In this document: in pieces, positions 8,369 to 27,741 of the stretch
How the letters are laid out: every line of letters begins with the position of its first letter
Numbering within the stretch: the first letter of the stretch is position 1
NCBI RefSeq assembly: GCF_000014785.1
Contig: NC_008340.1
Span: 30,001-62,000 of the forward strand
Source: Alkalilimnicola ehrlichii MLHE-1
GTDB lineage: Bacteria; Pseudomonadota; Gammaproteobacteria; Nitrococcales; Halorhodospiraceae
Direction of reading: 5' to 3'
Length of the DNA stretch: 32,000 bases
Made by a program: the position numbers and the translations under genes
Notes under the pieces: generated by a model
Databases searched by the model: none
What the model was told of the DNA's origin: nothing
Seen by the model: the letters and a program-made list of their open reading frames with translations, nothing else

Positions 8369-8589
8369 GGGCCCGATTGTACAACAGGTTTTTTGTTGGT
8401 TTCCGCGTGAAGGCTTTCGGCTTGCCCGAGGGGGTAGGCGATCAACCTGCGACGGCGGTAGCCGGAAGGAGGGAGGTGTCCATGATGGGGGAGTGCAACG
8501 AGGAACCCGACCAAACCAACCGGTTGGCGGGTAGCCGGGTTTCGACTACCTTCATTGAAACCCGCCCCGTAGGAGTGATGCCCACTTAG

Positions 8590-8739
8590 ATCGGGACGAC
8601 TGCCCTGCGACGTCCTGGATTGAGCCTGTGCCGGCTACGGCATCTACTGGCCGGAATTCGACGAAGACCTCAGTACGGAAGGTATGTTTCGGGGGCGCCA
8701 GCGCCTAGCAAGTCGTATATGGACTCCTCCCGCAAGTAG
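8590..8739 (+). pseudogene. Remnant of a DUF2442-family gene (C-terminal part only; in-frame stop and frameshift)
   Basis: The translation GYGIYWPEFDEDLSTEGMF matches the conserved DUF2442 C-terminal motif (G.GIHWP.LDEDLS.EGLL). A TGA at 8621-8623 lies just upstream. The expected tail (GAPAPSKS...) is reached only after a frameshift at the G5 run 8691-8695. No N-terminal half is present. Confidence 0.4.
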
Positions 8740-8794
8740 CAACGGCGGATGCACGGGCGACTTTGCTTAAGCGGATCTAAACGGGGAGAGAATA

Positions 8795-9163
8795 GTGATT
8801 GAAGGTATCGTTGCGATACTTGCGGGGTTGCTGCTGATTACACCCATCATTGGTAGGGGGTCGGCTGGGGCCAAGGTCGTTGGCAAGCTTACCCCTTTCG
8901 AGGCCGTGATCGGTGTTGTCGCTCTGATAGTCGGTGTGCTTAACGTTATGAGTGTCACGGGGCTGGTGCTAATTGTGGCTGGCCTCCTATTAGCGGCCAG
9001 CGCGCTTGCGAAGATCCCCGCCATTGGTAGTCACCTCGCGCGTGCAGGCAAGGCTCTCAAACCGTTCCGGGTCGTAATTGGTGTGGTTGTGTTGGTGATC
9101 GGCGTGTTGGTTTTGCTTGGGATCGTCGGCGGGGGCCCGCCGCCGGGTCTCCGCACCGGCTGA
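8795..9163 (+). CDS. Small hydrophobic membrane protein with an internal duplication
   Basis: GTG start preceded by GGGGAGAG. 122 aa, about 4 predicted TM helices. The segments KLTPFEAVIGVVALIVGVLNV and ALKPFRVVIGVVVLVIGVLVL are repeated. Local GC is lower than in the flanks. Confidence 0.5.
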   Translation: MIEGIVAILAGLLLITPIIGRGSAGAKVVGKLTPFEAVIGVVALIVGVLNVMSVTGLVLIVAGLLLAASALAKIPAIGSHLARAGKALKPFRVVIGVVVLVIGVLVLLGIVGGGPPPGLRTG

Positions 9164-9195
9164 TGCTGTCCGTGCGCCAACCCTCCCTGGTGTTC

Positions 9196-9785
9196 CGCTC
9201 CAATGCCTTGGAACATCTCGTGCAGGTCGACGGTGGAACGCTCGCCGATGCCAGCGAAGTTCTCGTCCAGCCAGCGTGTCGCGGTGTCGCGGCCCATGTC
9301 ACGCAGCTTGGTGAGAAACGCCCATTCGACGTTCATACACGACGAGGCGCTCAGCGGCTTCAGCTCCCGCCTGGTTTTCGATGATATGCACGCGCACCTA
9401 AGGGTGGTCGTCTGTCGAAAGCTTGCCCTGGCGGATCAAGCGATCGACGAAGTCTATCGAGCCAAGTTCCCTTAGCAGGCTGCCGTTGAAGCTGATCTCG
9501 TTCATCCGGTGCTCAATCTCCTGCGGCGTCCTTGGTGTGCCCTTGCGCTTGATTGGATTGATCTGGATCACCACGACATCGTCGGTGTCGGTCGCGCCAT
9601 GAAAGGGGAACAGAGACGGATTGCCCATGTAGCCACCATCCCAGTACGGCACACCATCGATCTCAATGGCCTGATATGGACAGCCGGCCGTCCTCGAGAA
9701 TGCGGTCCAGCACCGCCCAGGTGAACGCACCATGCGCGCCACCGCCCTGCAGGGCAAGATTCACGGCTTTCAGATTGGTTGTCAT
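9196..9785 (-). pseudogene. Patatin-like phospholipase pseudogene (internal deletion of the GxSxG region plus a frameshift)
   Basis: ATG at 9785 is preceded by AGGAG and gives MTTNLKAVNLALQGGGAHGAFTWAVLDRILEDGRLSI (oxyanion-hole GGG motif), then a stop. A different frame continues with YQAIEIDGVPYWDGGYMGNPSLFP (catalytic DGG motif) ...INPIKR...NEISFN. A third frame carries the DUF3734-like tail NVEWAFLTKLRDMGRDTATRWLDENFAGIGERSTVDL. The lower boundary is approximate. Confidence 0.65.
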
Positions 9786-9861
9786 CGGATTTTAGCTCCT
9801 AAACCAGAGCCCGAGTCTCGCATCATGACGCTTAAGCTACTGACTCTACGCCACAATAGGG

Positions 9862-9880
9862 CGACCCCAGCCTGGGGTCG
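9862..9880 (-). terminator. GC-rich hairpin, possible end of the minus-strand effector/immunity operon
   Basis: CGACCCCAG-C-CTGGGGTCG is a perfect 9-nt inverted repeat, 24 nt beyond the last minus-strand ORF stop. No clear U-tract follows, so an intrinsic-terminator call is weak. Confidence 0.25.
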
Positions 9881-9903
9881 GTACGCTCGCGAACATACCG
9901 AGA

Positions 9904-10152
9904 TCACACACGAATACAGCGCTCTTCCCGCTGCCAGTTCGGCATTGAGGCGTGGACTTCGGGCTGGGCAACTCGATGGCGATTTCCGAGCAGAAAGCCC
10001 AGGCCGGCAGCCGAACCCAACAGCGCCGGGGACGTCATCCGGTCATGGATTCGGTGGCGCAGCATGGCGCCCTGCGCGCCCATCGATCGCTGGCGCTCGG
10101 CGCCATTGATGCGTGCTGCCAGCGATTCGGAGTGGGGTGCGTTGCGGATCAT
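9904..10152 (-). CDS. Possible small single-TM protein (82 aa from the internal ATG); may be non-functional
   Basis: MIRNAPHSESLAARINGAERQRS...MTSPALLGSAAGLGFLLGN has one hydrophobic helix. The annotated 129-aa ORF (to 10293) starts inside the effector-derived 95-bp repeat and is therefore chimeric. Confidence 0.3.
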   Translation of the reverse strand: MIRNAPHSESLAARINGAERQRSMGAQGAMLRHRIHDRMTSPALLGSAAGLGFLLGNRHRVAQPEVHASMPNWQREERCIRV

Positions 10153-10230
10153 GATGACGTGTCCGTTTCGGGGGTCAGACTGCGCACGGTGGCGGGGAAC
10201 TGCAGATTTGGGCGTTGCTGGCGGATCGCC

Positions 10231-10325
10231 CAGCCACTCAGGAATATTGCCGTCGCCTGCATTGGCAACGTGAGGCGCCAGGTTCAACGACATCAGGCCT
10301 TCGATGGTTCGTGCGGAGAAGAGCG
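10231..10325. repeat. 95-bp copy (93/95 identical) of an internal segment of the effector gene
   Basis: I aligned cagccactcaggaatattgccgtcgcctgcattggcaa[c/t]gtgaggcgccaggttcaacgacatcaggccttcgatggttcgtgc[g/c]gagaagagcg by eye against 15702-15796. The flanks are unrelated. Confidence 0.9.
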
Positions 10326-11309
10326 ACGCTGGGTGTGGGGATCGAGGGTTTGCGGGGCGTCGGGGTGCAGGCCCTGGTCGCGCTCAATGTCGTAGAGTCG
10401 GGAGGTGGGGCCGTCGGCGCGGCAGCGTTCGCGCACGAGCGGGTGCCACTGGCTGCGGGCGGCGCGGCGCTGGGCCAACTGCCAGACAAAGTCGCGCAGG
10501 ACGAGGGCGGGCAGCATGACGGCCTGGAAGGCGTTGGTGAACCACATGCGGTCGCGGGTCATGATGCCCATGTCGACCAACTCCCGGTGGAGTTCGATGT
10601 CGATCTTGCCCGTGCGATTGCGCTGGGCGAAGCGTTTGCGCACCGCCTGGCGGGTGGATTCGGGGGTGTTTCGGCCCTGCTCGTCGAACCAGGGGCCGTT
10701 TTCCATGTAACAGCGTAGGTACTCCCAGAGCATGGCCTGGGTCTGGGCGGTGTGGCCCATGGGAAGGTTGAGATTGACGGCGATGACCTCGTCGGGCTGC
10801 TGGAAGCGCTGGAGGAGGATCTGCAGGGGGGTGAGCCGGTTGACGCCGGCATGGTGGGTGACCTGGCGGGTTTCCTGCAGCCATGCGACGGCCTCGTCCC
10901 AGGGGGTGTGGTAGAGCTTTTTGCCGTCCTGGAAGTAGACCTCGCGGGTGCGGCGATTGAAGCGCAGGGGCAGGGCCGCGGGCCAGAAGACCTCGAGCAG
11001 GAAGAAGACCAGGGTGACGCCGGCCATGGCTCCATTGACCTGCAAAGCGAATACCGCTCTCTCTCCCCCGTGGAAAAAGTTGGGTGACATCACTACTAGA
11101 CCCATCAGCGTTCCCCATCCCCAAAACCCGGTCCACAGGCCCCTTGAGCTTCCGGTGGTGATATCGAGGTAGTGCTCGGTCTGGTCCTGGACGTCGCCGG
11201 CCTGCATGGGCTGGGCGGCCGCGCGCCGGTCGGGGCGCAGGGTGATGACCTCGTCGGCGAGCCCGATATTGCGGGAGAGATCGGCGAAGAACCGGCGCAG
11301 GTGGTGCAT
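10293..11309 (-). CDS. Polytopic membrane protein, paralog of 11926-13257; candidate (orphan) T6SS immunity protein
   Basis: 338 aa. Shares PLRFNRRTREVYF, TPWDEAVAW and MLWEYLRCYMENGP with PIRLHRQRREVAF, VPWEDVIAV and AQWEYIRRFMEEGP of the 444-aa protein. Its ATG is 2 nt after the stop of the preceding ORF. Its last ~10 codons lie inside the 95-bp effector-derived repeat. Confidence 0.7.
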   Translation of the reverse strand: MHHLRRFFADLSRNIGLADEVITLRPDRRAAAQPMQAGDVQDQTEHYLDITTGSSRGLWTGFWGWGTLMGLVVMSPNFFHGGERAVFALQVNGAMAGVTLVFFLLEVFWPAALPLRFNRRTREVYFQDGKKLYHTPWDEAVAWLQETRQVTHHAGVNRLTPLQILLQRFQQPDEVIAVNLNLPMGHTAQTQAMLWEYLRCYMENGPWFDEQGRNTPESTRQAVRKRFAQRNRTGKIDIELHRELVDMGIMTRDRMWFTNAFQAVMLPALVLRDFVWQLAQRRAARSQWHPLVRERCRADGPTSRLYDIERDQGLHPDAPQTLDPHTQRRSSPHEPSKA

Positions 11310-11311
11310 GG

Positions 11312-11827
11312 CTAGTTGATCCGGATGGGAGGCAGGGTGAGATCGGGGAACGGGCGATAGTACAGGGTGCCGGAGAGGGAGCTCAGCCGGTCGCCGTCCC
11401 GGGTGTCGTGGTAGATGAGTCGGTAGACGGGGCCGTCGGGCGCCTCCGCCCCACCGATGTCGAGGTCGAGATCCTTTTCGGTGATGGTCCGGCTGCGTTC
11501 GTCATGCCGGACCAGCCCGGTGCGCCAGCGCTCGGTGGCCTCCAGAGTGAACATGCCCGGGAAGGGCGTGGCGCCGGGGAAGGTGACCAGCAGGACACGG
11601 TAGTGGTGGACATCGCCGGAGCGGGGGTTACGGGCCTGGCGGGCCTCCAGCCGGATGCGCGGCTCGTAGAGCAGCCGGTAGAGGTGGCCGAGTTCCTCGT
11701 CCAGGTCGCCGGCCCAGTCGGCCAGCCGCGGGAGTCGCCCGCGAACGCCGCGTAGGCCGTGCCACGCAGGACGCCATGGCCCGGGGTTGACCGCCCCATC
11801 GATCATCATCCATGAGCCTTGGTCCAT
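11312..11827 (-). CDS. 171-aa soluble protein of unknown function; possibly derived from the C-terminal domain of a displaced VasX-like effector
   Basis: ATG at 11827 is preceded by AAGGAG (the open frame extends to 11851). It is tightly coupled to the downstream membrane protein (TAG-CC-ATG). By-eye similarity to the last ~175 aa of the 1099-aa effector is described in the findings. Confidence 0.55.
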   Translation of the reverse strand: MDQGSWMMIDGAVNPGPWRPAWHGLRGVRGRLPRLADWAGDLDEELGHLYRLLYEPRIRLEARQARNPRSGDVHHYRVLLVTFPGATPFPGMFTLEATERWRTGLVRHDERSRTITEKDLDLDIGGAEAPDGPVYRLIYHDTRDGDRLSSLSGTLYYRPFPDLTLPPIRIN

Positions 11828-11925
11828 GGCCTTACTCCTTTGCCGCCGCATACCTTTTACAGGCCAGCTCTGGGCTGGGCAGCCTGGAGCAGCGTAACGG
11901 TTGGTGTCTGGCTCATGGCGCCGGC

Positions 11926-13257
11926 TCAGGCCGCGCTGGCCGCAAATGGCAGTGTGCGATAAGCCGTACCTGGGGAGGGCTCCACCTCGACCCCAAAGCG
12001 TTTCTCGATATTGCCCATCTCGATGAACTTCTCGCCGCGCTGGTAGGCCTGCCGCAGCTTCTCGCCGAGTTCAGTGAGTTCGCGCGAAGGTCGGGCCCAC
12101 TGGTCCCGGGGAAGGGGCCTGGACCATCCCGCCAGCCAGCCCTTGGGCACCGCCTTGGGCAGCACATGCTTCATGCGGTACTCGGTGTACCAGTGGGCGA
12201 AGCGTGCATGATTCCACCACTGCTCGCGCCGAAAGCGCCGCCAGCGGGCCTTGTCGTGGGTGCGTTCGCACTCGGCCTTTTCCCGGGCCACGTAGGCGTC
12301 GTACCACTCGAGGCCCCACTCCCGGGCGGAAGAGGTGATGGCCTCGGGCCCCTCCTCCATGAAGCGGCGGATGTACTCCCACTGGGCCAGCGCGCCCGGG
12401 AGGCCGCCGACCCCGACGATGATGCCGGCCCCGGGCAGGGTATAGCCGGGTCGTTCCGGATCGGGCGGCATCAGAGCGAAGTTCCAGCCGAAGCCGGTGA
12501 CGGCCCCGGCGCTGAGGCTGGGGTTGAACCCGCAGACCGCGATCACGTCCTCCCAGGGCACCAACACGGTCTGGCGCTGTTGGCCGACGAGCTTGCGGCA
12601 GAAGTCATGGAAATAGGGATAGAGAGGCAGGAAGGCCAAGGAGGCGATGTGGATCAGCAGTACCTTGAGAGGGAAGACCGTATCTGGATTCGCCATCCAT
12701 TCGAACACGTCCACAAAAACCATAATTCCGGTCAGCGAGGCAATGACACCCGAAGAAGCCATCAACCACATGTTGGTTGGGTCGGGCAGCCAGAAGCGCC
12801 GCCCGGGGGCATCCACGACGAAGGCCACCTCCCGGCGTTGGCGATGGAGGCGGATGGGGGGGATGCGTCTCAGTACGACATCGGGATAGAGAATGCCGGC
12901 AAAAAGAGGAAACAATATAACCGCGTAAATGCTTCCCAGCCCCCCTGCAACCAACTCCAAGGGCAGTGAGCCCTTGTACACCGCACTCAGGGAGAAAAGG
13001 AGCCCCAGTCCCGAAATTAGCGTCAGGCCGACACTAAAGATATGCCCCGTAATCAGGACGCTATCGAGGCTGGCAGCCTGGCGCAGGTCCATCGTGACCT
13101 CGTCGCGGCGAACGTCGATGTGGGCCACGTCCACGCCATGTTCGCTGTCGGTGGGCAGCGGCAGAGGGCTGAGACAGTACTGCTCGCCGCCGGCGCGGCT
13201 TTCCCGTTCGCCGGCGCGCATAGGGGGTAACGTATCGTCGATGGTTGATCTGGGCAT
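11926..13257 (-). CDS. Polytopic membrane protein immediately downstream of the effector; candidate cognate immunity protein
   Basis: ATG at 13257 (MPRSTIDD...) is 20 nt after the effector stop. The ORF-track start at 13368 would overlap the effector by 90 nt. Several TM helices are predicted. It is a paralog of 10293-11309 with an extra TM-hairpin insertion. Its position corresponds to tsiV2 after vasX in V. cholerae. Confidence 0.7.
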   Translation of the reverse strand: MPRSTIDDTLPPMRAGERESRAGGEQYCLSPLPLPTDSEHGVDVAHIDVRRDEVTMDLRQAASLDSVLITGHIFSVGLTLISGLGLLFSLSAVYKGSLPLELVAGGLGSIYAVILFPLFAGILYPDVVLRRIPPIRLHRQRREVAFVVDAPGRRFWLPDPTNMWLMASSGVIASLTGIMVFVDVFEWMANPDTVFPLKVLLIHIASLAFLPLYPYFHDFCRKLVGQQRQTVLVPWEDVIAVCGFNPSLSAGAVTGFGWNFALMPPDPERPGYTLPGAGIIVGVGGLPGALAQWEYIRRFMEEGPEAITSSAREWGLEWYDAYVAREKAECERTHDKARWRRFRREQWWNHARFAHWYTEYRMKHVLPKAVPKGWLAGWSRPLPRDQWARPSRELTELGEKLRQAYQRGEKFIEMGNIEKRFGVEVEPSPGTAYRTLPFAASAA

Positions 13258-13277: not shown

Positions 13278-16200
13278 TCACGGCCAGGGCGTCAGGGGCA
13301 TGTCCGGCCAGTTGCCCACTTGGTACCGCGTGAGGAAACGATCGCCGAGGGCGGAGATCTCCCTCCACTCATCGGAGAGCGATGTGCCGCGGCGATGCAA
13401 CTGGAAGACCCGGGTGGTGGATGCTTCGGGGCCCTTCGTGCGGATGACGAGGCGGAACTCGTGGCATTCGGCCAATGTTTCGGGATCGAAATGGTAGTGC
13501 AGGGCATAGCTCGAGCCCTGGTTTTCGAGCTCGGCATGTTCGAGAAAGTCTCGGGTCATTTCCTTGAGGCGAGGGGTGACGCCCCAGAGGCCCAGCGCGA
13601 GGTTTTCCGCATTGGGGGCGTCAAGCCCGGGCAAGCCAATGCGTATGGCGAGGTCGGTGCCTGCCGGCCCGGGCCCCGGGCCGCCATGGGGCTCGGCCTG
13701 CCCCTGCCGTTCCACCGTGAGATCGGTATCGCCAAGTCGGGCCAGTTCCCGCTCGTGGGCCTCGCGATCCCAGCCCTGATCTTCTCGCCCCCAGTGACTG
13801 CGCTGGCACCAGCGCTGCACAGGGCTCAACGAGAAGCGATTGGCCAGCACCTCGCCGATGATCAGCAGGGCGGTGCCAACCGCCACCACCCAGCCGGCGG
13901 GGCCGGCGAATTTCAGCAGCAGCAGTCGCCAGGCGACTGCGGGCTTGCCCAGCATCCTGCCAAGCGCGCTCATGCCGCCGATTAAGAAGCCACCACCGGC
14001 GACTCCGGCCGCACCTGTAAAGGCAACCTGTAAGGCCAGTCGCTCCGCCTGGGTTTCTGATCCCTGCATTCGTTTGTACTGCTTGTAGGTTTCTAAGAGA
14101 CCTGCAAAGCCACCCAGTAGGGCCACGGCCCCCATCGCCCCATTGGCAACCCTTGCCCAGCGCTCCAGTTGCGCGGGGCTTCCGGCGGCGGCGCGGGTCT
14201 CGGCCAAGGCCACCTGCTGAAAGCCCCGCCCCTGGTAGAGGTTGCGATGGCGGGCGTCGATGATCATTTCTCGTATTGCCATGATGCTCGCTGCCGCCCC
14301 TGTCGCGTGAGAGCCCGTCGCGAAGGCGTGCTCCATGAGGCGTTCTTCGCCCCAGGCATCAAGCGTATTGCGCAGGGCCACGCCGGTCATGATCATACCC
14401 AGCATCGACAGGCTCCCATTAACCAGCACCCCCAGGCTCCGACTCGCCGACAGCTCGCCCTGTTCGTCGCGCACCAGGGTGTTCAAGGTGTCGTTCAGGG
14501 TCGCGGCTGGTTGACGGGCAACGGCCCGGTCGGCGGCACGCTCGGCCAGGGCGGCACGGGTGGCGGCCAGGCTCAGGCCGCCGACCTGGACGGCGTGGCC
14601 ATTGGCCTTGTCGACGGGGAAGCTGTGTTCGGCCAGGGCGTCGAATGCCTCGCCCAGCAGGCGCCTGTGCCGGTTGATGTCGGCCTGGCTTTCGCGGATT
14701 TTGCGGGCATTGAACCGGTCGGCGGCCCGGCGATGCGCCTGGCTGGTGCCGCGCCTGGACGCCCGTGCCAACTCGACCTGGCGCTCCTGGTAGAGCTGCT
14801 CGAGCCTGCGCTCAAGGGTTGCCAGGTTGGCCACGGCCGAGTCCGCCTGGTCCAGTGCTTGCTGGATGCGGCCCAGTACGGAGCGGTCGGGGATGGCCCA
14901 GCCGAGCTCGAGCAGCCCCAGACGTTCGGCAAACATCAGCCGTTGCCCATCGGGCAAGCGCGAAGCCAGGGTAGTGATGCGCTGCCCCAGGTCGACATCC
15001 TGTACGTCATCGAGCAACGTCCCGAGCACCGCCTGCCCCAGCAGCTTCTCCTTGATTTGCACTTCGCCCGCGATGGCGGTTCGGGCTTCGTCGGAGAGGC
15101 CCTCGACGCTGCGAAAGCGCAGCCCGGTCTGATGTTCAACCTCGCCCCGCCACTGCTGGTAGCGGCTGAGTGCGCCCTGGGCGCCCATCAGTGCGGACGC
15201 CTGGGTGAGCGCTTTCTGGAGGCCAGTGTTTTGGGAAAGGAATCCCTCCACGAAGGACGCGGTGGGGACGTAATGCATCAGGTGTGCCGGTACCGGGTCG
15301 TCGCCGGCGTAGTAGCTCGACAGGAAGTCCTCCTGCCCGCAGGCCAGCAGGGTCTCGACGGCCTGCTTTTCCAGCAGGCAGGTCAGCAGGATGTGATGCT
15401 CCTCTTCGCGGTCGAGCAGCAGGGCCTGGGTGTGCCAGGTGGGCAGTATGGCGGCCAGGTCGGCCCCGATACGGTGATACTCGCTCTGCCACTGCGCCTG
15501 CATCGGGGTGGCATAGGCCAGGAAGTCTTCCATCGCCTGCCGGCGGATCACGTCGACGATGCCGTTGGGCGCCAGCGCCCCGCCAATGAAGCCCGGGTGG
15601 CCGCCTGAACGGGCAGTGACCTGCTCTATGGCTTCGCGATGCTGCGAATAGAGCTCGGCGAGCGACTCCAGGTCGTTACGCTCGGCATAACTGGCTTCGC
15701 TCAGCCACTCAGGAATATTGCCGTCGCCTGCATTGGCAATGTGAGGCGCCAGGTTCAACGACATCAGGCCTTCGATGGTTCGTGCCGAGAAGAGCGCCAC
15801 CGCGTTCTCGTCGACCCACTGGCCCTGTTGTTCCGCCAGGCAGGCCCACGCCTGGGCGAGGTCCTTGATACGTCCGGCGATATCGTCCACTACCAGGCAG
15901 GCGCTGTCTTGCTGAAAGCCCCCCTGGATAGCCGCCTTGATCTCGGCGGCGCGCGCACGCTGCCACTCGGCGTGTTCGCCTTCCGCGTCGCACCAGGCGT
16001 AGCTGCCCGGGTCGAGCGGGTCGCCGTCCTGCTCGGTCGGGGCGCTGGGGGTCGCGCGGTGTTCGCCATGGTCGTCCGCCAGGACGTCGGCCAGGGCATC
16101 GGGATCGAGCAGGTGAGCGGTACCCGCCCCCGGACAGTAGGCGCCAACGTTGACCCGCGTCATCACCTGATCGCGGAAGGCAGGTTTAAGCAGCATCGAT

Positions 16201-16577
16201 TGGTGCACGGCCGTCAGCGCCAAGGGACTGAACAGCACCTGGATGCTGCCCTCGCGCTCGACGATGATCGCATCGCCGCTGCCATCGGGTTTGACCTCGA
16301 AGACCTGCAGCTCATCGGGCGTTGAGCTGTGTACCAGGTAGAGCCAGCCTTCCCGTACCGGCCGTACGCCACAGCGACGGAAACTGCCGTCATGAACGGG
16401 CCGGAAGCCCGGCGTGCCCGAGGCCCGATCCGCCTCGGGCGCCTCGACCAGGGCATACCGCACCGGGACCAGCTGCAGCTCACCGCGCGTAAGAGGGCAG
16501 AGCCCCTGCTCTTGGCCCGGGTCGTTATCGTTCCGGCTCTCCGCGACGCGGTTGGCGGCTTCCATGTCGGTGCTCAT
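13278..16577 (-). CDS. T6SS effector, VasX / BTH_I2691-like (N-terminal loading region, coiled-coil middle, C-terminal cluster of TM helices, about 175-aa terminal domain)
   Basis: 1099 aa, directly after vgrG and the DUF4123 adaptor with a 4-nt ATGA overlap. The N-terminus GLCPLTRGELQLVPVRYALVE resembles the VasX N-terminal region. Glycine-rich hydrophobic helices near the C-terminus include LSMLGMIMTGVAL, GAVALLGGFAGLL, FTGAAGVAGGGFLIGGMSALG and WVVAVGTALLIIGEVL. Confidence 0.8.
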   Translation of the reverse strand: MSTDMEAANRVAESRNDNDPGQEQGLCPLTRGELQLVPVRYALVEAPEADRASGTPGFRPVHDGSFRRCGVRPVREGWLYLVHSSTPDELQVFEVKPDGSGDAIIVEREGSIQVLFSPLALTAVHQSMLLKPAFRDQVMTRVNVGAYCPGAGTAHLLDPDALADVLADDHGEHRATPSAPTEQDGDPLDPGSYAWCDAEGEHAEWQRARAAEIKAAIQGGFQQDSACLVVDDIAGRIKDLAQAWACLAEQQGQWVDENAVALFSARTIEGLMSLNLAPHIANAGDGNIPEWLSEASYAERNDLESLAELYSQHREAIEQVTARSGGHPGFIGGALAPNGIVDVIRRQAMEDFLAYATPMQAQWQSEYHRIGADLAAILPTWHTQALLLDREEEHHILLTCLLEKQAVETLLACGQEDFLSSYYAGDDPVPAHLMHYVPTASFVEGFLSQNTGLQKALTQASALMGAQGALSRYQQWRGEVEHQTGLRFRSVEGLSDEARTAIAGEVQIKEKLLGQAVLGTLLDDVQDVDLGQRITTLASRLPDGQRLMFAERLGLLELGWAIPDRSVLGRIQQALDQADSAVANLATLERRLEQLYQERQVELARASRRGTSQAHRRAADRFNARKIRESQADINRHRRLLGEAFDALAEHSFPVDKANGHAVQVGGLSLAATRAALAERAADRAVARQPAATLNDTLNTLVRDEQGELSASRSLGVLVNGSLSMLGMIMTGVALRNTLDAWGEERLMEHAFATGSHATGAAASIMAIREMIIDARHRNLYQGRGFQQVALAETRAAAGSPAQLERWARVANGAMGAVALLGGFAGLLETYKQYKRMQGSETQAERLALQVAFTGAAGVAGGGFLIGGMSALGRMLGKPAVAWRLLLLKFAGPAGWVVAVGTALLIIGEVLANRFSLSPVQRWCQRSHWGREDQGWDREAHERELARLGDTDLTVERQGQAEPHGGPGPGPAGTDLAIRIGLPGLDAPNAENLALGLWGVTPRLKEMTRDFLEHAELENQGSSYALHYHFDPETLAECHEFRLVIRTKGPEASTTRVFQLHRRGTSLSDEWREISALGDRFLTRYQVGNWPDMPLTPWP
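15702..15796. repeat. Master copy, inside the effector CDS, of the 95-bp repeat found at 10231-10325
   Basis: Encodes effector residues ~261-292 (LFSARTIEGLMSLNLAPHIANAGDGNIPEWL). 93/95 identical to the distal copy. Confidence 0.9.
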
Positions 16578-17473
16578 GCCTTGCTCTCCCTGCTCGCTAG
16601 CCGCCGGGCCTCGGTGGCGGCGGCCTTGAGTCGCTCCATGGGGGTGCCGCTGGTCTGGGTGACGTGCCGAGCCAGATCCGGCATGCGCTGTTCATCCAGG
16701 GCCGCCGGACCATAGGCCCCCAGGATGTTGGCCATGTAGTAGTGGGCGCGCCGACCGGTGAAGCCCAGCTCCCGTGTGGTATCGATGACCCGCCGAGCGG
16801 CCATGCCAGCCGTCCCGCATTCGCTGATCAGCGGGCCGTGGGCGAAGAATGCCTGGAGGTGCTGTGCCAGCTCTCCGGCGAAACGCTGCCAGGCGATACG
16901 ACTCAGCGATTCGAGATGTGCTGGCTGCAGCCTGAAGCGCTTCCGGTGCCGTACCGGCTCACCCTGGGTGTTGGTCAGATGGCGCCAGGTGATGCCGTCG
17001 TCTTCGGCTATCGGCAACCATAGCGCGCCGATCACCCCCAGGAGCGGGCTTTGCGAGGGCTCCGGCTCCGCCTCGAGCAGGCAGTGCACGACTTGGGCCG
17101 AGGCCAGCCGTAGTATCTTTTCGCCTTCCAGGGGGTGCTCGACAAACAACAGCCAGCGCAGATGCGCCGCGAGTTCCTCCAGCGAGGCATCGCTGGCCAT
17201 GAGCCAGCCCCAGCTCTCGACCGCGCCCTGTTCCAGGAACCTCTCCCAGACCAGGCTGCCCGGCTCCAGAGCCACCAGGCATGGCGAGAGCTTTCGACAC
17301 GCTTCCAGCGGCGTGTGCAGGTAGAGCGGCTCATAGACGGGTGTATCGAGGTGCTCGTAGAGCCAACGTTCCAGAGGTTCGAGCGCTATGCCGTCGAGCA
17401 GCAGGTAGTGCTTCCCGTCACCGAGGGCAGCCGCCGACGGTGGCGCGCTATTGGGGAGTGCCCCCGTGGTCAT
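16574..17473 (-). CDS. DUF4123 T6SS effector adaptor/chaperone (VasW/Tap/Tec-like)
   Basis: [14 protein letters not shown]...[12 protein letters not shown]...[23 protein letters not shown] fits the DUF4123 pattern. Start and stop overlap the vgrG stop and the effector start by 4 nt each. Confidence 0.8.
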
Positions 17474-18725
17474 GCCGATCCCTCGTCATCGCCAGTGGGT
17501 GTGCAGGGCTGTGTCAAAGCCATCGCCTGGCGCAGGGCTGCCTCCTGCCGAATCGGCTCAATACGCGGCACGTTAGGGGCCGGCTCCACCTCCCTTTGCG
17601 ATGCCAACTCCGCCTCCCGCGGCACCTCCGGTGCGAGGGCCGCCTGGCCCGAGCCCGATCCAGGGCTGCCCCCGGAGTTCATGCGGATGCCGGGGCCGCT
17701 GAGGGTGATGCCCGAGGGATCGACCTTGATGAAACTGCCGCCCGCCTGGAGGGTGATCTCGGCACCGGCGTCGATGACCGCCTTGTGCCCCGACTTGACG
17801 TGCAGTTCCCGGCCGCATTCGCTCAGCCAGGCCTCACCGGCTTTGAGATGCAGGGTGCCCTCCACGCTGAGATGCTGATCCCCACCGGTGCGCTCGCGCC
17901 GCTCGCCCTGCACGGTGAGGTGCTCGTCGCCGTGGATCTCCGCGAGCCGGTCGCCGTGGACGCCCAGGTGGCTGTGGCGGCCGATGGTCTCGGAGCGGTC
18001 GTTGCGGGTGTGCAGGTCGAGATCGCGCTGGGCGTGCAGGTGGATGCGCTCGGCCTCGCGGGCATCCTCGAAGTGCAGTTCGTTGTAGCCCTCACCGTCC
18101 TGGCTGCGGCTGCGCAGCACGCTGCGGGTCTTGTGCGCGGGCAGCGGATAGGGCGGGGTGTTGTGGCCATCGTAGACCCGGCCGGTGATCACCGGCTGAT
18201 CCGGGTCGCCGGCCAGGAAGTCGACGATCACCGCATGGCCCACCCGGGGCAGGAACAGCCCGCCGTAGCCGGGCCCGGCCCAGGGCTGGGCGACGCGCAG
18301 CCAGGCGCTGGCGTGCTCGTCATCGGCGGCGTAGCGGTCCCAGGGGAAACGGACCTTGACCCGGCCGTGCTCATCGCAATGGATCGCCTCCCCCTCGGGG
18401 CCCACCACCCGGGCGATCTGCGGGCCCTCCATCCGCGGGCCGGCGTCCGGGTCGTGGGGCGGGCGCCGGTGCGGCCGCGCTGGAACTCGGTGACGATGCC
18501 GTGGACCCGGCGGGTGACCGCACCCCCCTGATGGATCACCAGCGCCAGGCCCTGCTCAAGCCAGTCGTCGGGGGCGATATCGGGCGAGGGGTGGACCAGG
18601 TCCAGGGTCAGCGTGAAGGGCCGGGAGAGGTGCTCATCCAGCAAGAACCCGGTGACCCGGGGCAGGTCGGCCTCCGCCGCGCCGGGGCGCGAGAGGGCGA
18701 GGTACAGTCCGTTGTCCGTAGGCAT
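17470..18725 (-). pseudogene. vgrG: vgrG with a large internal deletion (most of the gp27-like domain missing) and a frameshift
   Basis: The N-terminal ORF (from 18725) gives about 85 VgrG-like residues ending [16 protein letters not shown] different frame then starts with [32 protein letters not shown], a motif that normally sits near residue 390, and continues through the gp5-like repeats to the [10 protein letters not shown] tail. The locus spans only 1256 nt, versus about 2 kb for an intact vgrG. Confidence 0.75.
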
Positions 18726-18760
18726 GGCCAGTCCGTTGGCATGGGAATCCGATTCGGAGC

Positions 18761-18789
18761 AGCCTAAGAGGGGGCCCCGGACCTGTCAA
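18761..18789 (-). promoter_or_regulatory. Candidate sigma70 promoter for the vgrG-effector operon
   Basis: On the minus strand: TTGACA (18789-18784), 17-nt spacer, TAGGCT (18766-18761), about 35 nt upstream of the vgrG ATG. Motif match only. Confidence 0.3.
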
Positions 18790-18817
18790 GCAAACCACCG
18801 GGGCAGCGTGTGGGGGG

Positions 18818-18829
18818 GGCTTGCAAGCC
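18818..18829. promoter_or_regulatory. Perfect 12-bp palindrome GGCTTGCAAGCC abutting a G8 tract in the divergent T6SS intergenic region
   Basis: Read directly from the sequence. G8 spans 18812-18819. Possible regulator binding site. Confidence 0.25.
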
Positions 18830-18938
18830 GGAATCGGTCCGTGCTAATCCTAAAACGTAGCCAGGAAGGCTACCCGATCCAGTCAACGCGGTTTGCTGTG
18901 CTGCAGTGGGCCGCGCCGAATCAAGGAAGAGTAAGTCA

Positions 18939-18952
18939 GACAATGGATTGTC
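18939..18952. promoter_or_regulatory. Inverted repeat GACAAT-GG-ATTGTC, possible operator upstream of tssB
   Basis: Read directly from the sequence, 127 nt upstream of the tssB ATG. Confidence 0.25.
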
Positions 18953-19078
18953 TCCCTATTCATGCCACCGGTATACCCGGTATCCCCGTTCAGCCGCACC
19001 CCATGAGGGTTGTGGATCGCCCTTGCGTGCGTGCTGTCCCCCGCTCCGTTCTGCGAGCCCACCACAGGGAGTGAAACG

Positions 19079-19588
19079 ATGTCCGACCAAGGAACGGTCG
19101 CGCCCAGAGAGCGCATCAATATCCGTTATGTGCCCGCCACCGGAGACCAGGCGTCCGAGGCCGAGCTGCCACTGAAGCTGCTGGTGGTTGGCGACTTCAA
19201 GGGCGGTTCCGAGGAGACGCCGATCGAGGAGAGAACGGCGGTCTCCGTGGACAAGAACAACTTTCACTCCGTGCTCGCCGAGTCGGGCCTGGGCCTGGAG
19301 GCCTGCGTGCCCAACCGGCTGCAGGCCGGTGACGAGGTCAGCGATCTGCCCGTCCGCCTCTCCTTCAAGGCGCTGGATGACTTTGCCCCCGACCGGTTGG
19401 CACAGCAGGTGCCGGAACTCCGCAAGCTGGTGGCCCTGCGTGAGGCCCTCGTGGCCCTGAAAGGGCCGCTGGGCAATATCCCGGCGTTCCGCAGGCAGTT
19501 GCAGGACCTGCTGGAGAGCGAGTCGGTCCGGGAACGGTTGCTGGAGGAACTGAAGCGCGTCACGTCCCCTGAGGACGACACCGAGTGA
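19079..19588 (+). CDS. tssB: T6SS contractile sheath small subunit TssB (VipA)
   Basis: MSDQGTVAPRERINIRYVPATGDQASEAELPLKLLVVGDFKG is canonical TssB. ATG at 19079 is preceded by GGGAG. The ORF-track start at 19010 is too far upstream. Confidence 0.9.
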   Translation: MSDQGTVAPRERINIRYVPATGDQASEAELPLKLLVVGDFKGGSEETPIEERTAVSVDKNNFHSVLAESGLGLEACVPNRLQAGDEVSDLPVRLSFKALDDFAPDRLAQQVPELRKLVALREALVALKGPLGNIPAFRRQLQDLLESESVRERLLEELKRVTSPEDDTE

Positions 19589-19622
19589 TCGGTGCCCGCA
19601 ACGGAAGCGAGGAGTCACCCCA

Positions 19623-21101
19623 ATGAACGAAATGGTAGCCGAGCACACCGCGTCAGCGGCATCGGACGGCCCCCTGCTGGACCAGATCATGGCCAAGACC
19701 CGCATGGCGCCCAGCGACGAGGGCTACGATATCGCCCGGCAGGGTGTTGCGGCCTTCATCAGCGAGCTGCTCAAGGGTGAGGGGGAGGAGACGCCGCAGG
19801 TCAATAAAGCGGTGGTCGACCGGATGATCGTCGAACTGGACCGCAAGATCGGGCAGCAGGTGGACGAGATCCTTCATCTGCCCGAATTCCAGCGCCTGGA
19901 GTCCGCCTGGCGTGGCCTCAAGCTGTTGGTCGATCGCACGGACTTCCGCGAGAATATCCGCCTGAACCTCCTCCATGCCAGCAAGGAGGAATTGCTGGAG
20001 GATTTCGAGTTCTCGCCGGAACTGCCCCAGAGCGGGTTGTACCAGCACGTCTACGCCTCCGGTTACGGTCAGTTCGGCGGCGACCCGGTGGCGGGGGTCA
20101 TCGGGGTCTACGACTTCCAGCCCACCACCCCGGACATCAAGCTCCTCCAGTACAGCGCCGCCGTGGGGGCCACCGCCCACGCCCCCTTCATCTCGTCGGT
20201 GGCCCCGGAGTTCTTCGGTATCGAGCGTTACCAGGACCTGCCCAACATCAAGGACCTGGCCGCCACCCTTCAGGGGCCCAAATACGCCCGTTGGCGCAGC
20301 CTGCGTGAGAGCGAGGATGCCCGATACCTCGGCCTCACGGCCCCGCGCTTTCTGCTGCGCATGCCCTACGACCCGGTGGAGAACCCGGTAAAGACCTTCA
20401 ACTACCGGGAGTCGGTCAGCGAGAGCCACGAGCACTACCTGTGGGGCAACACGGCCTATCTGTTCGCCGAGCGGCTTACCGACAGCTTCGCGCGTTACCG
20501 CTGGTGCCCGAACATCATTGGCCCGCAGAGCGGCGGTGCCGTGGAGCACCTGCCGGTGCATACCTTCGAGTCCATGGGCCAACTGCAGGCCAAGATCCCT
20601 ACCGAGGTGCTGATCACCGACCGGCGGGAGTACGAACTGGCCGAGGAAGGGTTCATCGCCCTGACCATGCGCAAGGACAGCGACAACGCCGCCTTCTTCT
20701 CGGCCAACTCGGTGCAGCGGCCCCGGCGCTTTCCCAACACGGCGGAGGGCCGCGCGGCGGAGACCAACTTCAAGCTGGGCACGCAACTGCCCTATCTGTT
20801 CGTCGTCAATCGCCTCGCCCACTACATCAAGGTGCTGCAGCGCGAGCAGATCGGTGCCTGGAAGGAGCGCCAGGACCTGGAGCGGGAGCTGAACGACTGG
20901 ATCCGGCAGTACGTGGCGGACCAGGAAAACCCGCCGGCGGAGGTGCGCAGCCGGCGCCCCCTGCGCGCCGCCTCCATCCAGGTCTCCGACCTGGAGGGCG
21001 ATCCGGGCTGGTATCAGGTCTCGCTGGCCGTGCGTCCCCACTTCAAGTACATGGGGGCCAACTTCGAGCTCTCCCTTGTCGGTCGACTGGACAAGGAGTA
21101 A
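19623..21101 (+). CDS. tssC: T6SS contractile sheath large subunit TssC (VipB)
   Basis: 492 aa with TssC motifs: LPEFQRLESAWRGLKLLV, APFISSVAPEFFG, RFLLRMPY. Confidence 0.95.
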   Translation: MNEMVAEHTASAASDGPLLDQIMAKTRMAPSDEGYDIARQGVAAFISELLKGEGEETPQVNKAVVDRMIVELDRKIGQQVDEILHLPEFQRLESAWRGLKLLVDRTDFRENIRLNLLHASKEELLEDFEFSPELPQSGLYQHVYASGYGQFGGDPVAGVIGVYDFQPTTPDIKLLQYSAAVGATAHAPFISSVAPEFFGIERYQDLPNIKDLAATLQGPKYARWRSLRESEDARYLGLTAPRFLLRMPYDPVENPVKTFNYRESVSESHEHYLWGNTAYLFAERLTDSFARYRWCPNIIGPQSGGAVEHLPVHTFESMGQLQAKIPTEVLITDRREYELAEEGFIALTMRKDSDNAAFFSANSVQRPRRFPNTAEGRAAETNFKLGTQLPYLFVVNRLAHYIKVLQREQIGAWKERQDLERELNDWIRQYVADQENPPAEVRSRRPLRAASIQVSDLEGDPGWYQVSLAVRPHFKYMGANFELSLVGRLDKE

Positions 21102-24306: not shown

Positions 24307-25017
24307 GTGTCCCTGCAAGCACCCACGGTGACCTTGGTGGTCATCAATCCCGAGATCATGGACGGCCGGGCCGCTGGCGCCCACGTCTTCGACACCCGGG
24401 GGGGCTGCCTGGGCAGCGACCCCGCCCTCAGTGACTGGTGCCTGCCGGATGCCGGGGGCCGTGTCCATGGGGTGCACGCTGCCCTGCGCTACGAGCAGGG
24501 GCGGTTCATCCTGGATGATGAATCCGGTGACACCCGCATCAATGGTGTCAGCCGGCCCCTGGGCCGCGGGCAGCGGGTGCTGCTCTCGGAGGGGGATGTG
24601 CTGGCGGTGGGCAACTACCGGCTTCGGGTGCTGTTCGGGGGCGCCGGCGACGCGTGCCCCGCGGCCGATCTGGCCGCCCTTGCCGGAGAACCAGAGGCGG
24701 TCATGACCAGCGAACGTCCGCCTTTGATGGCGGAGCGGGCGGACGCGGGGAGCGACCCCCTGGCGGCCCTGGGGGCCCCTTCGGTCGCCACCCACACGGT
24801 GGCCGACCCGCTGCGCGCCCTGGATGCCGCCACGACCTTCCCGCAGGAAGAGCGGCCCCTTTACGGGCCGGAGGTGCCGGCCGGCGATCAACACGCCATG
24901 ATGATGCCGTCCCGGCCCAGATACGGGCAGGATCGGCCCCGTTGCCCCCAGGCGGCCGAGGCGGCCATTGAGGCCGGGTTGCAGGCCGCGCGGCGCGAGC
25001 AGGAGGAGGGGGTATGA
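24307..25017 (+). CDS. fha: FHA-domain T6SS-associated protein (Fha/TagH-like, short form)
   Basis: The N-terminal FHA core is GRFILDDESGDTRINGVSRPLGRGQRVLLSEGDVLAVGNYRLRV. Same position as fha (VCA0112) in V. cholerae. Confidence 0.75.
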   Translation: MSLQAPTVTLVVINPEIMDGRAAGAHVFDTRGGCLGSDPALSDWCLPDAGGRVHGVHAALRYEQGRFILDDESGDTRINGVSRPLGRGQRVLLSEGDVLAVGNYRLRVLFGGAGDACPAADLAALAGEPEAVMTSERPPLMAERADAGSDPLAALGAPSVATHTVADPLRALDAATTFPQEERPLYGPEVPAGDQHAMMMPSRPRYGQDRPRCPQAAEAAIEAGLQAARREQEEGV

Positions 25018-26925: not shown

Positions 26926-27741
26926 ATGTCGATGACAGCGCCCATTGCGGGCCCGGAGACCGTGCCAGCGGAGGCACCCGAACCCGCGGGCGGTCGGGGT
27001 ACGCTCGTACCCGAGGAGCCGCACACCGCCTTCCGCCTGCGTGGCCACAGCCCGAATCCGCTGGTGGACGCGGCCAGCCCGCTGCTGGGCCTGGTCATCC
27101 GAGTCCGCGAGCTGGAGGTGCTGGACGATGTGGCCGCGCTCTACCGGCAAGTGGTGGAGGACATCGGTGCCATCGAGCTCGAGCTCACCGAGCAGGGTCT
27201 CGACCGCCCCACGCTGCTGGCCTATCGCTACGTCTTGTGCACCTTCGTCGACGAGGCGGTGATGGGGACCGAGTGGGGCCAGCAGAGCGATTGGTCCCGG
27301 CACTCGTTGCTGGCCCGGTTTCACAACGAGACCTGGGGCGGCGAGAAGGTCTTCGCCATCCTGGCCCGGCTGCAACAGGAGCCCCAGCGCTACGAGCCAC
27401 TGCTCACCTTCATCTACATCTGCTTCAGCCTGGGTTTCCAGGGGCGCTACCGCATCCGCCCCGACCGACGCGAGGAGTACGAGCGGATCGTCCGTTCATT
27501 GGGGGAGCAACTCTCTAGCCTGCAGCCGTCCGGCGACGAGAACCTGACCGAACCCGAGCGCCATATCGCGCCCGCCGGCTGGCGATCCGGCGAGGGGGTG
27601 CCGGCCTGGTTGATCCCGGCCTTGTCCGTCCTGGTCGCAGTCGGCCTGTACCTGGCCATATCCTGGTCCTTGGACCAACAGGCCGCCGAGGTCCACGCCT
27701 TCCTGCACCAGGTCTTCGCGGACATGGGTGACGCATCGTGA
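26926..27741 (+). CDS. tssL: T6SS membrane-complex subunit TssL (DotU/VasF), no peptidoglycan-binding extension
   Basis: NPLVDAASPLLGL...YRYVLCTFVDEAVM...WGGEKVF is DotU-like, with a single C-terminal TM. ATG at 26926 is 7 nt after AAGGAG. Confidence 0.85.
   Translation: MSMTAPIAGPETVPAEAPEPAGGRGTLVPEEPHTAFRLRGHSPNPLVDAASPLLGLVIRVRELEVLDDVAALYRQVVEDIGAIELELTEQGLDRPTLLAYRYVLCTFVDEAVMGTEWGQQSDWSRHSLLARFHNETWGGEKVFAILARLQQEPQRYEPLLTFIYICFSLGFQGRYRIRPDRREEYERIVRSLGEQLSSLQPSGDENLTEPERHIAPAGWRSGEGVPAWLIPALSVLVAVGLYLAISWSLDQQAAEVHAFLHQVFADMGDAS

Follow-up and report, generated by a model that had tools for sequence, protein, structure and literature searches.

The T6SS locus of Alkalilimnicola ehrlichii MLHE-1 raises the question of whether the vgrG gene that lies beside it (Mlg_0043) still encodes a spike and, if it does not, how the gene was broken and what remains for the effector module that it heads. 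The window, i.e. the whole stretch of 32,000 nucleotides analysed here, corresponds to bases 30001-62000 of CP000453, and positions are given in window coordinates unless stated otherwise (Table 1). We find that this vgrG is very probably a pseudogene, made by one illegitimate internal deletion that left the two remaining parts out of frame: its frame is broken relative to full-length homologues and an essential domain is gone, as judged by Pfam, TIGR03361 and alignment to a full-length paralogue. The lesion is recent and is ordinary gene decay, within a toxin island that is rich in deletion scars.

The main value of this result is for annotation and function prediction. Mlg_0043 stands in the databases as a T6SS tip protein and would be tallied among the spikes in automated surveys. 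The main texts of the literature on Alkalilimnicola and T6SS or VgrG held nothing relevant, the locus being listed only in the supplement of Boyer et al. (2009; supplementary file 154), which places Mlg_0043 at genome positions 47470-48432 and assigns it to COG3501 with a coverage of only 30%; this low coverage thus already stood in the 2009 survey table, uncommented there.

Table 1. Features of the vgrG module and the surrounding island, in window coordinates.
Feature	Position	Strand	Evidence
Stray internal vasX fragment, residues ~261-294	10226..10334	-	Repeat search, tblastn, translation
imm_b, second DUF6708 gene	10293..11309	-	Pfam DUF6708 E=2.2e-11
p179, 5' end of second DUF4123 gene fused to 3' end of second VasX-like gene	11312..11851	-	tblastn, blastn vs L013
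Second vgrG relic: last ~20 codons, B-type tail as in full-length paralogue, in-frame stop	11836..11892	-	tblastn
imm_a (Mlg_0040), presumed immunity, weakly DUF6708-like	11926..13257	-	Homology to Billgrantia gene
VasX-like effector gene Mlg_0041, 1099 aa, intact	13278..16577	-	Pfam VasX_N E=1.1e-22
DUF4123 adaptor gene Mlg_0042, intact	16574..17473	-	Pfam DUF4123 E=1.5e-24
vgrG 3' part: OB-fold, gp5-like beta-helix, A-type C-terminal tail	17470..18465	-	Pfam, TIGR03361, paralogue
Annotated 320-aa ORF Mlg_0043	18432..17470	-	ORF list, Boyer 2009 table
Out-of-frame read-through of 5' ORF, 76 nonsense codons, TGA at 18230-18228	18228..18458	-	ORF list
Deletion junction, 10-nt GGCGCCCGCC, inferred microhomology	18458..18467	-	Paralogue matches in both frames
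vgrG 5' remnant, codons 1-89, start of gp27-like hub	18459..18725	-	Pfam, TIGR03361, paralogue identity
tssB/vipA and tssC/vipB, start of T6SS core cluster, divergent from vgrG module	19082..21101	+	Pfam, Logan contig L009 gene calls, Boyer 2009 table

The lesion in vgrG

Both surviving pieces of the gene can be placed on the full-length VgrG of the same genome (ABI56192.1, P0121 in our set; 697 aa), in which the domain models are unbroken (Phage_GPD at residues 31-331, Phage_base_V at 401-468) and residues 31-638 align to P. aeruginosa VgrG1 (PDB 4UHV/4MTK). The 5' ORF (18725-18228, minus strand) is identical to this paralogue at 83 of 89 residues. Its residues 31-90 match Phage_GPD (PF05954), the model of the gp27-like hub, at profile positions 2-61 of 305 (E=2.2e-11), as against positions 2-303 in the paralogue, and it matches TIGR03361 at positions 13-79 of 513 with 39 bits; past residue 90 neither Pfam nor TIGR03361 gave a domain match, and the 165-aa ORF had no entry in the protein collection searched. 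The 3' part lies in another frame. It retains the OB-fold (Phage_base_V, PF04717; E=2.6e-16, covering profile positions 12-75 of 75, just as in the paralogue) and the gp5-like beta-helix (Gp5_trimer_C, PF22178; E=5.5e-23, positions 1-106 of 112), with DUF2345 also found by Pfam, and over paralogue residues 371-637 it shows three differences (L/M, A/E, S/R) in 267 residues (99% identity), after which, beyond 'MNSGG', the two tails are unrelated. The 320-aa product, identical in ABI55401.1, WP_011627797.1 and XQT86387.1, scores 256.5 bits against TIGR03361, above the cutoff of 186.35, and so is named VgrG in the databases, with a match that covers only positions 358-512 of the 513.

What is missing between the two pieces is paralogue residues 90-370, i.e. 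at least 850 nt (3n+1) or 283 1/3 codons, corresponding to Phage_GPD positions ~62-303 and TIGR03361 positions 80-357. Read from these alignments, the loss is about 80% of the gp27-like hub together with the linker to the OB-fold, with the frame shifted. Homology in the second frame restarts at 18465 (paralogue residue 371), 12 codons upstream of 'GPQIARVV'; vgrG holds no other stop or frameshift, so that the deletion is its sole lesion. At the junction, 7-10 nt of GGCGCCCGCC read as paralogue sequence in both frames, as G-A-R (residues 87-89) in the 5' frame and as (W/R)-R-P-P (residues 370-373) in the 3' frame, a pattern indicative of deletion between two short direct repeats; the 10-nt length of the repeat derives from these two-frame amino-acid matches, with 7 nt supported at the amino-acid level. 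The breakpoints would then lie in two copies of this repeat, which suggests replication slippage or microhomology-mediated recombination. A transfer of the hub to another place in the window was also considered and rejected, since tblastn found no trace of paralogue residues 92-363 anywhere in it.

These results agree with the core reading of the earlier note, made from the sequence alone, that the gene has lost most of its gp27-like domain and kept its gp5 part, tail and overlap with the adaptor gene: Pfam, TIGR03361 and the paralogue alignment all support it. The alignment to full-length VgrG and Pfam models that the note proposed as a check mapped the deletion and gave no complete gp27-like domain in a single frame. 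Of its finer claims, the ~85 VgrG-like codons at the start are borne out as codons 1-89, the predicted junction around 18455-18470 encloses the one mapped here (18467-18458), and ~300 missing codons was about right.

Seating of the spike on the baseplate and nucleation of the Hcp tube both depend on the hub. With the hub missing, neither vgrG product should be able to form a normal spike, and trimer seating and Hcp nucleation by the window vgrG would be lost. Translation from the native ATG (18725) would yield an 89-aa VgrG stub followed by 76 nonsense residues, the 5' frame stopping at 18228, about 750 nt short of the adaptor gene. No sigma-70-like sites were found within 17300-19150, and no convincing sigma-54 -24/-12 element in the intergenic region between vgrG and vipA.

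Compared with the orthologous metagenome contig L014, the 3' part has a dN/dS of 0.2, near the values of its intact neighbours (0.35 and 0.07), so that the gene has been constrained for most of its history. An open ORF of 320 codons without relaxed selection fits a recent lesion and is also compatible with retained function.

An intact effector module in an eroded island

Downstream of the lesion, the module itself is complete: vgrG is followed in order by DUF4123, VasX_N and immunity-type genes, in synteny with Billgrantia and L014. The ATG of the adaptor gene overlaps the vgrG stop codon (ATGA, 17473-17470) and has a Shine-Dalgarno (SD) pairing of -6.4 kcal/mol; Mlg_0042 shares 62% identity with the adaptor of Billgrantia and 87% with its L014 orthologue. 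Mlg_0041 aligns collinearly from end to end with the VasX-like protein of Billgrantia, and its N-terminal part has a dN/dS of 0.07 against the L014 orthologue. The last gene, imm_a, shares 41% identity with the gene of DUF6708 type located after vasX in Billgrantia, although its own Pfam DUF6708 match is weak, and its start at 13257, taken from SD pairing, agrees with the table of Boyer et al. (2009). The Mlg_0043 tail, 'PRIEPxRQExALRQxMALTQPC', recurs in conserved form in both L014 and Billgrantia P0002, and by this conservation it is the C-terminal motif of a cognate VgrG, with adaptor binding predicted. Beta-helix repeats, tail and 4-nt adaptor overlap, all described earlier as intact, are thus all kept. 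In Billgrantia the unbroken order is PAAR, vgrG (695 aa), DUF4123, VasX_N, DUF6708, and the ancestral state here was a full-length 'vgrG-A' heading an operon of vgrG, DUF4123 adaptor, VasX-like toxin and immunity gene.

Which spike could carry this effector today? The divergent core cluster continues from tssB and tssC with tssE, F, G, a fha-like gene, J, K, L, vasH, vasI, tssA and tssM to the window end, and clpV is absent from its usual place in it (Pfam; Boyer 2009 table). With neither a usable vgrG nor clpV in the main T6SS locus, any activity must rely on the distant paralogue for its spike. Of the vgrG, hcp and PAAR genes that the earlier note wanted looked for elsewhere in the genome, a full-length vgrG exists (ABI56192.1) and hcp and PAAR lie just past the right end of the window (Boyer et al., 2009), which favours its suggestion that the module depends on a vgrG elsewhere; the differing tail of the paralogue speaks against it. 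As the C-terminal tail of VgrG sets DUF4123 adaptor specificity (PMC11582642), the paralogue is not an obvious carrier for this effector. T6SS firing would have to use this protein, 99% identical in OB-fold and beta-helix and with a different adaptor-binding tail; because the core is alike and the tail is not, the cognate spike of the intact DUF4123/VasX-like/immunity module is probably gone. The result is a small natural experiment, a module minus its cognate tail next to a surviving spike that carries the tail of a module present only as relics, and it could serve to test tail-adaptor specificity. With the paralogue as query, a scan of reference genomes yielded only relatives at the 29-32% level, on three contigs of Sphingomonas and in one MAG of Polyangiaceae.

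The deletion would be one of several scars in an effector island that has been turned over and eroded. Mlg_0043 is the only vgrG in the window, as had been claimed, in so far as a gene is meant: a second vgrG survives at about 11892-11836 as a decayed relic of ~20 codons, 'LLQAAQPRAGL*KVCGGKG' against 'LLHQAAQSGAGLCEVCSGKGE' in the paralogue, in a region with an ungapped 82.5% nucleotide match to positions 599-718 of contig L013. The adjoining p179 lacks about 2.6 kb relative to L013; it has no Pfam match itself, and the L013 ORFs that it matches are DUF4123 and VasX_N by Pfam. Next to it, imm_b is 94% identical to the L013 gene that follows VasX-B and is probably an orphan immunity gene of the relic module, no intact VasX-B from this genome being among the protein-database matches. 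The DNA of the stray vasX fragment is 94% identical to 15697-15805. Among the explanations offered earlier, decay of the locus is the best supported, by the second-module relic, the stray vasX fragment and the absence of clpV from its usual place. The case is an ordinary example of deletion-driven turnover of T6SS effector islands.

Other explanations for the broken gene

The two pieces could derive from two genes, the 5' end of one vgrG having been joined to the 3' part of a tandem second vgrG with loss of the whole intervening effector module. We regard this as unlikely. Identity to the paralogue is 93% for the 5' piece (6 of 89 residues differ) and 99% for the 3' core (3 of 267), as expected if the pieces have separate histories; on metagenome contig L015 the 3' end of one vgrG is followed by a VasX_N-like gene and the 5' end of another vgrG, i.e. 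tandem modules, and second-module relics lie in the same island. However, gene conversion of the core by the paralogue explains the unequal identities equally well, and no relative recovered here preserves the pre-deletion layout at the locus, L014 itself starting at window position 18188, downstream of the junction. An artefact of assembly or cloning, with an intact vgrG in the real genome, is very improbable. A near-identical paralogue does hamper assembly: short-read contigs from three public runs (Logan) match the flanks at 100% and break off at 18722 and 17701, at the borders of the paralogous repeat and short of the junction, a search for independent contigs spanning the junction gave none, the junction 26-mer had no match in metagenomes, and every contig of the metagenome relatives, which served for context and dN/dS, starts downstream of it. 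Yet a collapse of the paralogues during assembly would not produce an out-of-register link between codons 89 and 371 over an overlap of 10 nt, the coordinates of Mlg_0043 have been stable since the finished genome of 2006 and are the same in the 2009 table, and GenBank records the identical 320-aa product in two accession series (ABI55401.1 and XQT86387.1), which may not be independent.

An internal deletion within one vgrG, the reading that we prefer, leaves the question of whether the 320 codons are still used. Hub-less spikes exist in phages (T4 gp5, P2 gpV), the ORF is open with OB-fold, beta-helix and conserved tail complete, its dN/dS is 0.2, and the rest of the module (adaptor, toxin and immunity gene) is intact. 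DUF4123 adaptors, moreover, bind a C-terminal motif of VgrG (PMC11582642). A functional gp5-only protein from ATG 18432, whether a needle binding PAAR and the adaptor-VasX complex, a partner that supplies the A-type tail by co-assembly with the paralogue, or a decoy, is nevertheless improbable, and this product, one of the options of the earlier note, has no positive evidence on its side. ATG 18432 corresponds to the Met383 codon of the ancestral gene, which the paralogue shares, and the anti-SD pairing at this ATG (-3.3 kcal/mol) is at the level of random ATGs in the region (-3.9 +/- 2.4), as against -6.4 to -8.4 kcal/mol at the starts of DUF4123, vasX, vipA, vipB, tssF and tssG; ribosomes on the upstream ORF cross it in another frame. 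The 120 closest VgrGs listed are all of 674-709 aa except for one partial entry of 482 aa and Mlg_0043 itself, and thus include no short-form family; the window holds no separate hub gene, and the constraint measured against L014 mostly dates from before the deletion. That vgrG gives no functional product would follow indirectly from the background-level pairing at ATG 18432; the native start is also weakly paired (-4.1 kcal/mol), so the SD argument alone is weak. The 320-codon frame would persist only through the recency of the lesion, behind an ATG without a ribosome-binding site of its own. We place slightly less weight still on the particular proposal that the fragment co-assembles with the paralogue into a mixed A-tail spike loading DUF4123/VasX, or sequesters PAAR or adaptor as a decoy; if true, it would be a natural 'split' use, with a truncated VgrG as tail donor. 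A programmed -1 ribosomal frameshift at the CCCC run (CGC CCC ACG), fusing the 89-aa stub to the gp5 part as a 'mini-VgrG', is scarcely credible: a -1 slip of tRNA-Pro on C CCC lands exactly in the 3' frame by our reading of the sequence, but the canonical X XXY YYZ heptamer is absent, no stimulatory structure is evident, and the fusion would still lack the hub. Since the 3n+1 deletion relative to the paralogue fully accounts for the offset, we rejected frameshifting as unnecessary.

Comparison with known systems

Measured against canonical VgrG/TssI proteins (P. aeruginosa VgrG1, PDB 4MTK/4UHV; ABI56192.1), the N-terminal 89 residues, OB-fold, beta-helix and DUF2345 of the window vgrG are homologous and collinear, whereas residues 90-370 are missing and the remaining parts lie in different frames. 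The order and domain families after vgrG are those of the Billgrantia tianxiuensis module, with which the tail motif is also shared, and of V. cholerae auxiliary cluster 2, which we take to consist of vgrG-2, vasW (DUF4123), vasX and tsiV2; unlike in these modules, the window vgrG is broken and has no hcp or PAAR gene before it, and the module runs divergently from tssB rather than being placed after tssM. Spikes without a hub are known in phage T4 (gp5), phage P2 (gpV) and the short VgrG of Francisella, where the hub or its equivalent is encoded separately. Like them, the 320-aa ORF consists of OB-fold and beta-helix only, but the window has no separate hub gene and the short form derives from a full-length gene.

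In a published model that invokes homology-facilitated illegitimate recombination, orphan immunity arrays arise by sequential displacement of T6SS effector modules (Kirchberger et al., 2017; PMC5361080). As in these arrays and in orphan Rhs/CdiA 3' cassettes, the island keeps downstream immunity-type genes and 3' relics of effector and vgrG genes; in contrast to the arrays, the lesion is an internal deletion, the resident vgrG keeping its own 5' end without displacement by an incoming module. The closest parallel to the tails is provided by VgrG6 and VgrG14 of P. aeruginosa with Tap6 and Tap14, near-identical VgrGs that differ only in the C-terminal adaptor-binding motif (PMC11582642). Here, too, the 3' core is 99% identical to that of the paralogue before the tails become unrelated, and in relatives each tail type precedes its own DUF4123 gene; unlike in P. 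aeruginosa, each pair has a broken partner, with the A-type spike truncated and the B-type adaptor and toxin persisting only as a relic.

A vgrG divided between two reading frames

The vgrG gene upstream of the adaptor gene had been described in the earlier note as truncated and frameshifted, and domain profiles confirm this far beyond chance (see table). By Pfam, the gp27-like hub is represented in the 5' ORF by its beginning alone (Phage_GPD positions 2-61 of 305 at residues 31-90, E=2.2e-11), while the 320-aa ORF holds the OB-fold Phage_base_V (E=2.6e-16), the gp5 beta-helix Gp5_trimer_C (E=5.5e-23) and DUF2345. The 513 positions of NCBIfam TIGR03361 are likewise split, with 13-79 covered by the 5' ORF and 358-512 by the 320-aa ORF. 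The latter is identical to ABI55401.1, WP_011627797.1 and XQT86387.1, all from A. ehrlichii MLHE-1, and is Mlg_0043 of Boyer et al. 2009 (BMC Genomics 10:104, supplementary file 154; genome 47470-48432), with a COG3501 coverage of only 30%; the window accordingly spans CP000453 30001-62000. The locus tag Mlg_0044 is missing from that table and was presumably given to the 5' fragment as a non-CDS or pseudogene feature. Databases currently name the fragment VgrG, with the truncation unflagged.

Features of the effector island (window coordinates)
Feature	Position	Strand	State
vgrG 5' ORF, 165 aa	18725-18228	-	start MPTDNGLYL..., then low-complexity nonsense
vgrG 3' ORF, 320 aa	18432-17470	-	overlaps 5' ORF
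DUF4123 adaptor gene	17473-16574	-	intact; ATG overlaps vgrG stop codon
VasX_N toxin gene, 1099 aa	16577-13278	-	intact
Presumed immunity gene, DUF6708-like	13257-11926	-	intact
Second vgrG relic, last ~20 codons	11892-11836	-	in-frame stop
p179, 179-codon chimera	11851-11312	-	adaptor 5' end + toxin 3' end
Second DUF6708 immunity-type gene (imm_b)	11309-10293	-	94% identical to relative's contig L013
Internal vasX fragment, 109 nt, residues ~261-294	10334-10226	-	94% identical to 15697-15805

A full-length paralog of 697 aa in the same genome (ABI56192.1), which shares a 90% protein cluster with the 320-aa ORF, provides the reference for the missing part. Its domains are unbroken (Phage_GPD 31-331, Phage_base_V 401-468, Gp5_trimer_C 485-589), and its residues 31-638 align to P. 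aeruginosa VgrG1 (PDB 4UHV/4MTK). Codons 1-89 of vgrG match residues 1-89 of the paralog at 83 of 89 positions; homology restarts in the other frame at residue 371, from which only three differences (L/M, A/E, S/R) occur in 267 residues, before the two tails become unrelated beyond 'MNSGG' and a short common Gly/Ser stretch. Residues 90-370 have no counterpart anywhere in the window. The gap amounts to 850 nt (3 x 283 + 1), a length that explains the shift of frame, and a search of both vgrG parts for further stops or frameshifts found none. We conclude that this vgrG is very probably a recent pseudogene produced by a single deletion.

Origin and age of the junction

At the junction (18467-18458, GGCGCCCGCC) the 5' frame reads G87-A88-R89 and the 3' frame (W370)-R371-P372-P373. 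Both parental readings therefore cross the same 7-10 nt, a hallmark of deletions that arise between short direct repeats, and this double reading suggests that the repeat was present at both ancestral sites. The 850 nt are a minimum, allowing also for a larger deletion between two tandem vgrG copies; both the unequal identity to the paralog (93% in the 5' piece, 99% in the core) and the occurrence of vgrG modules in tandem in relatives are in keeping with such an event. That the junction is instead an assembly artefact we regard as extremely improbable, as a collapse of paralogs would not yield an out-of-register join through 10 nt, the same 320-aa product appears under two GenBank accession series (from assemblies that may not be independent), and contigs from SRR32708590, SRR9436228 and SRR9436229 match the flanks at 100%. 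These contigs break off exactly where the paralog repeat has its borders (18722 and 17701), so that no contig spans the junction, and the junction 26-mer had no match in metagenomes. The same ends imply that the two copies are identical at the DNA level, starting ~26 nt before the ATG and again up to the point of tail divergence.

A comparison with L014, a metagenome contig orthologous to window 18188-16025 (90% nucleotide identity), gave dN/dS values of 0.07 at the 5' end of vasX, 0.20 in the 3' part of vgrG and 0.35 in DUF4123; relaxed constraint on the vgrG 3' part was thus not seen. We favour a lesion younger than the divergence from L014, the less likely alternative being a fragment still in use.

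The earlier proposal that a gp5-only product is made from the internal ATG (18432) found no positive evidence. This ATG corresponds to Met383 of the paralog, an ancestral codon (Val in Billgrantia), and anti-SD pairing of the 20 nt before it reaches -3.3 kcal/mol, a background value (random regional ATGs, mean -3.9 +/- 2.4; real genes in the region, -6.4 to -8.4). Ribosomes from the native start would cross it in another frame, until 18228. The closest VgrG relatives listed (n=120) measure 674-709 aa, this ORF and one partial entry being the exceptions. Consensus sites for sigma-70 or sigma-54 were not found, which says little. A role for the fragment as tail-donating subunit or decoy is very unlikely.

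Secretion cluster and a probably stranded effector module

Hcp tubes are assembled on the gp27-like hub as their platform (review PMC10433429), and neither vgrG product should therefore yield a normal spike. Each DUF4123 adaptor binds a short motif at the C-terminus of its cognate VgrG, and near-identical VgrG paralogs are distinguished by this motif alone (PMC11582642). The suggestion that the module relies on an intact vgrG elsewhere thus holds in that the full-length paralog exists, but not in its tail, which differs from the A-type tail of the 320-aa ORF; with the same core and a different tail in the paralog, the intact adaptor/VasX module is probably left without a carrier. Translation would now stop ~750 nt short of the adaptor gene, and downstream expression may be lowered through lost translational coupling and polarity. 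The intact equivalent in Billgrantia tianxiuensis comprises PAAR, vgrG (695 aa, with the same tail motif), DUF4123, VasX_N and DUF6708 genes.

Divergently from vgrG runs a T6SS core cluster of the V. cholerae type, in the order tssB/vipA, tssC/vipB, tssE, tssF, tssG, an FHA-like 236-aa gene, tssJ, tssK, tssL, vasH, vasI, tssA/vasJ and tssM; hcp (Mlg_0058) and PAAR (Mlg_0059) lie 3.3-4.2 kb past the right window end (Boyer 2009 table). The cluster lacks clpV, which Billgrantia has between tssL and vasH. Here tssL (26926-27741) and vasH (27738-29315) overlap by 4 nt (27738-27741), a join also found in an independent Logan contig (assembled from public runs) and in the 2009 locus table, which has no COG0542 entry. 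The 236-aa gene that separates tssG from tssJ (24307-25017, +) matches no Pfam family, has a partial COG3456 (FHA) match (43% coverage, 2009 table) and may be a shortened Fha/VasC.

Relics and turnover in the island

Of a second module only relics persist in the window when compared with L013, a contig from metagenome SR_TP_S13sol whose module has a vgrG with the paralog-type tail followed by DUF4123, VasX_N and DUF6708 genes. The vgrG relic, between the first immunity-type gene and p179, reads 'LLQAAQPRAGL*KVCGGKG' against 'LLHQAAQSGAGLCEVCSGKGE' at the paralog C-terminus. In p179, which has no Pfam match and is ~2.6 kb shorter than its L013 counterpart, the first ~18-24 codons of the second DUF4123 gene are joined to the last ~155 of the second VasX-like gene. 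Among the protein-database matches, none named from MLHE-1 was an intact VasX-B homolog. The vasX fragment forms a direct repeat, located at the 3' end of imm_b and in another reading frame, and accounts for the end of Logan contig L001 at 15756. Between thiS/thiG and the island, ~1.8 kb (8400-10225) of G+C 0.60, against ~0.68, holds short ORFs only, without Pfam matches, and may be further degraded island sequence.

The same parts are arranged differently in close relatives: in the same metagenome, L013 (1-5634) carries vgrG-B, DUF4123-B, VasX-B and imm_b in order, then an imm_b 5' fragment, a DUF4123-A 3' fragment and vasX-A, and L015 (1-6658) carries vgrG modules in tandem. Recurrent rearrangement of the island within this lineage seems likely. 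Of the earlier explanations, decay of the locus is the best supported, by the second-module relics, the vasX fragment and the missing clpV; the effector island is one undergoing deletion and turnover. The vgrG pseudogene adds one more case to a familiar kind of event, and the overall pattern is similar to that described for V. cholerae, with its sequential displacement and its arrays of orphan immunity genes (PMC5361080).
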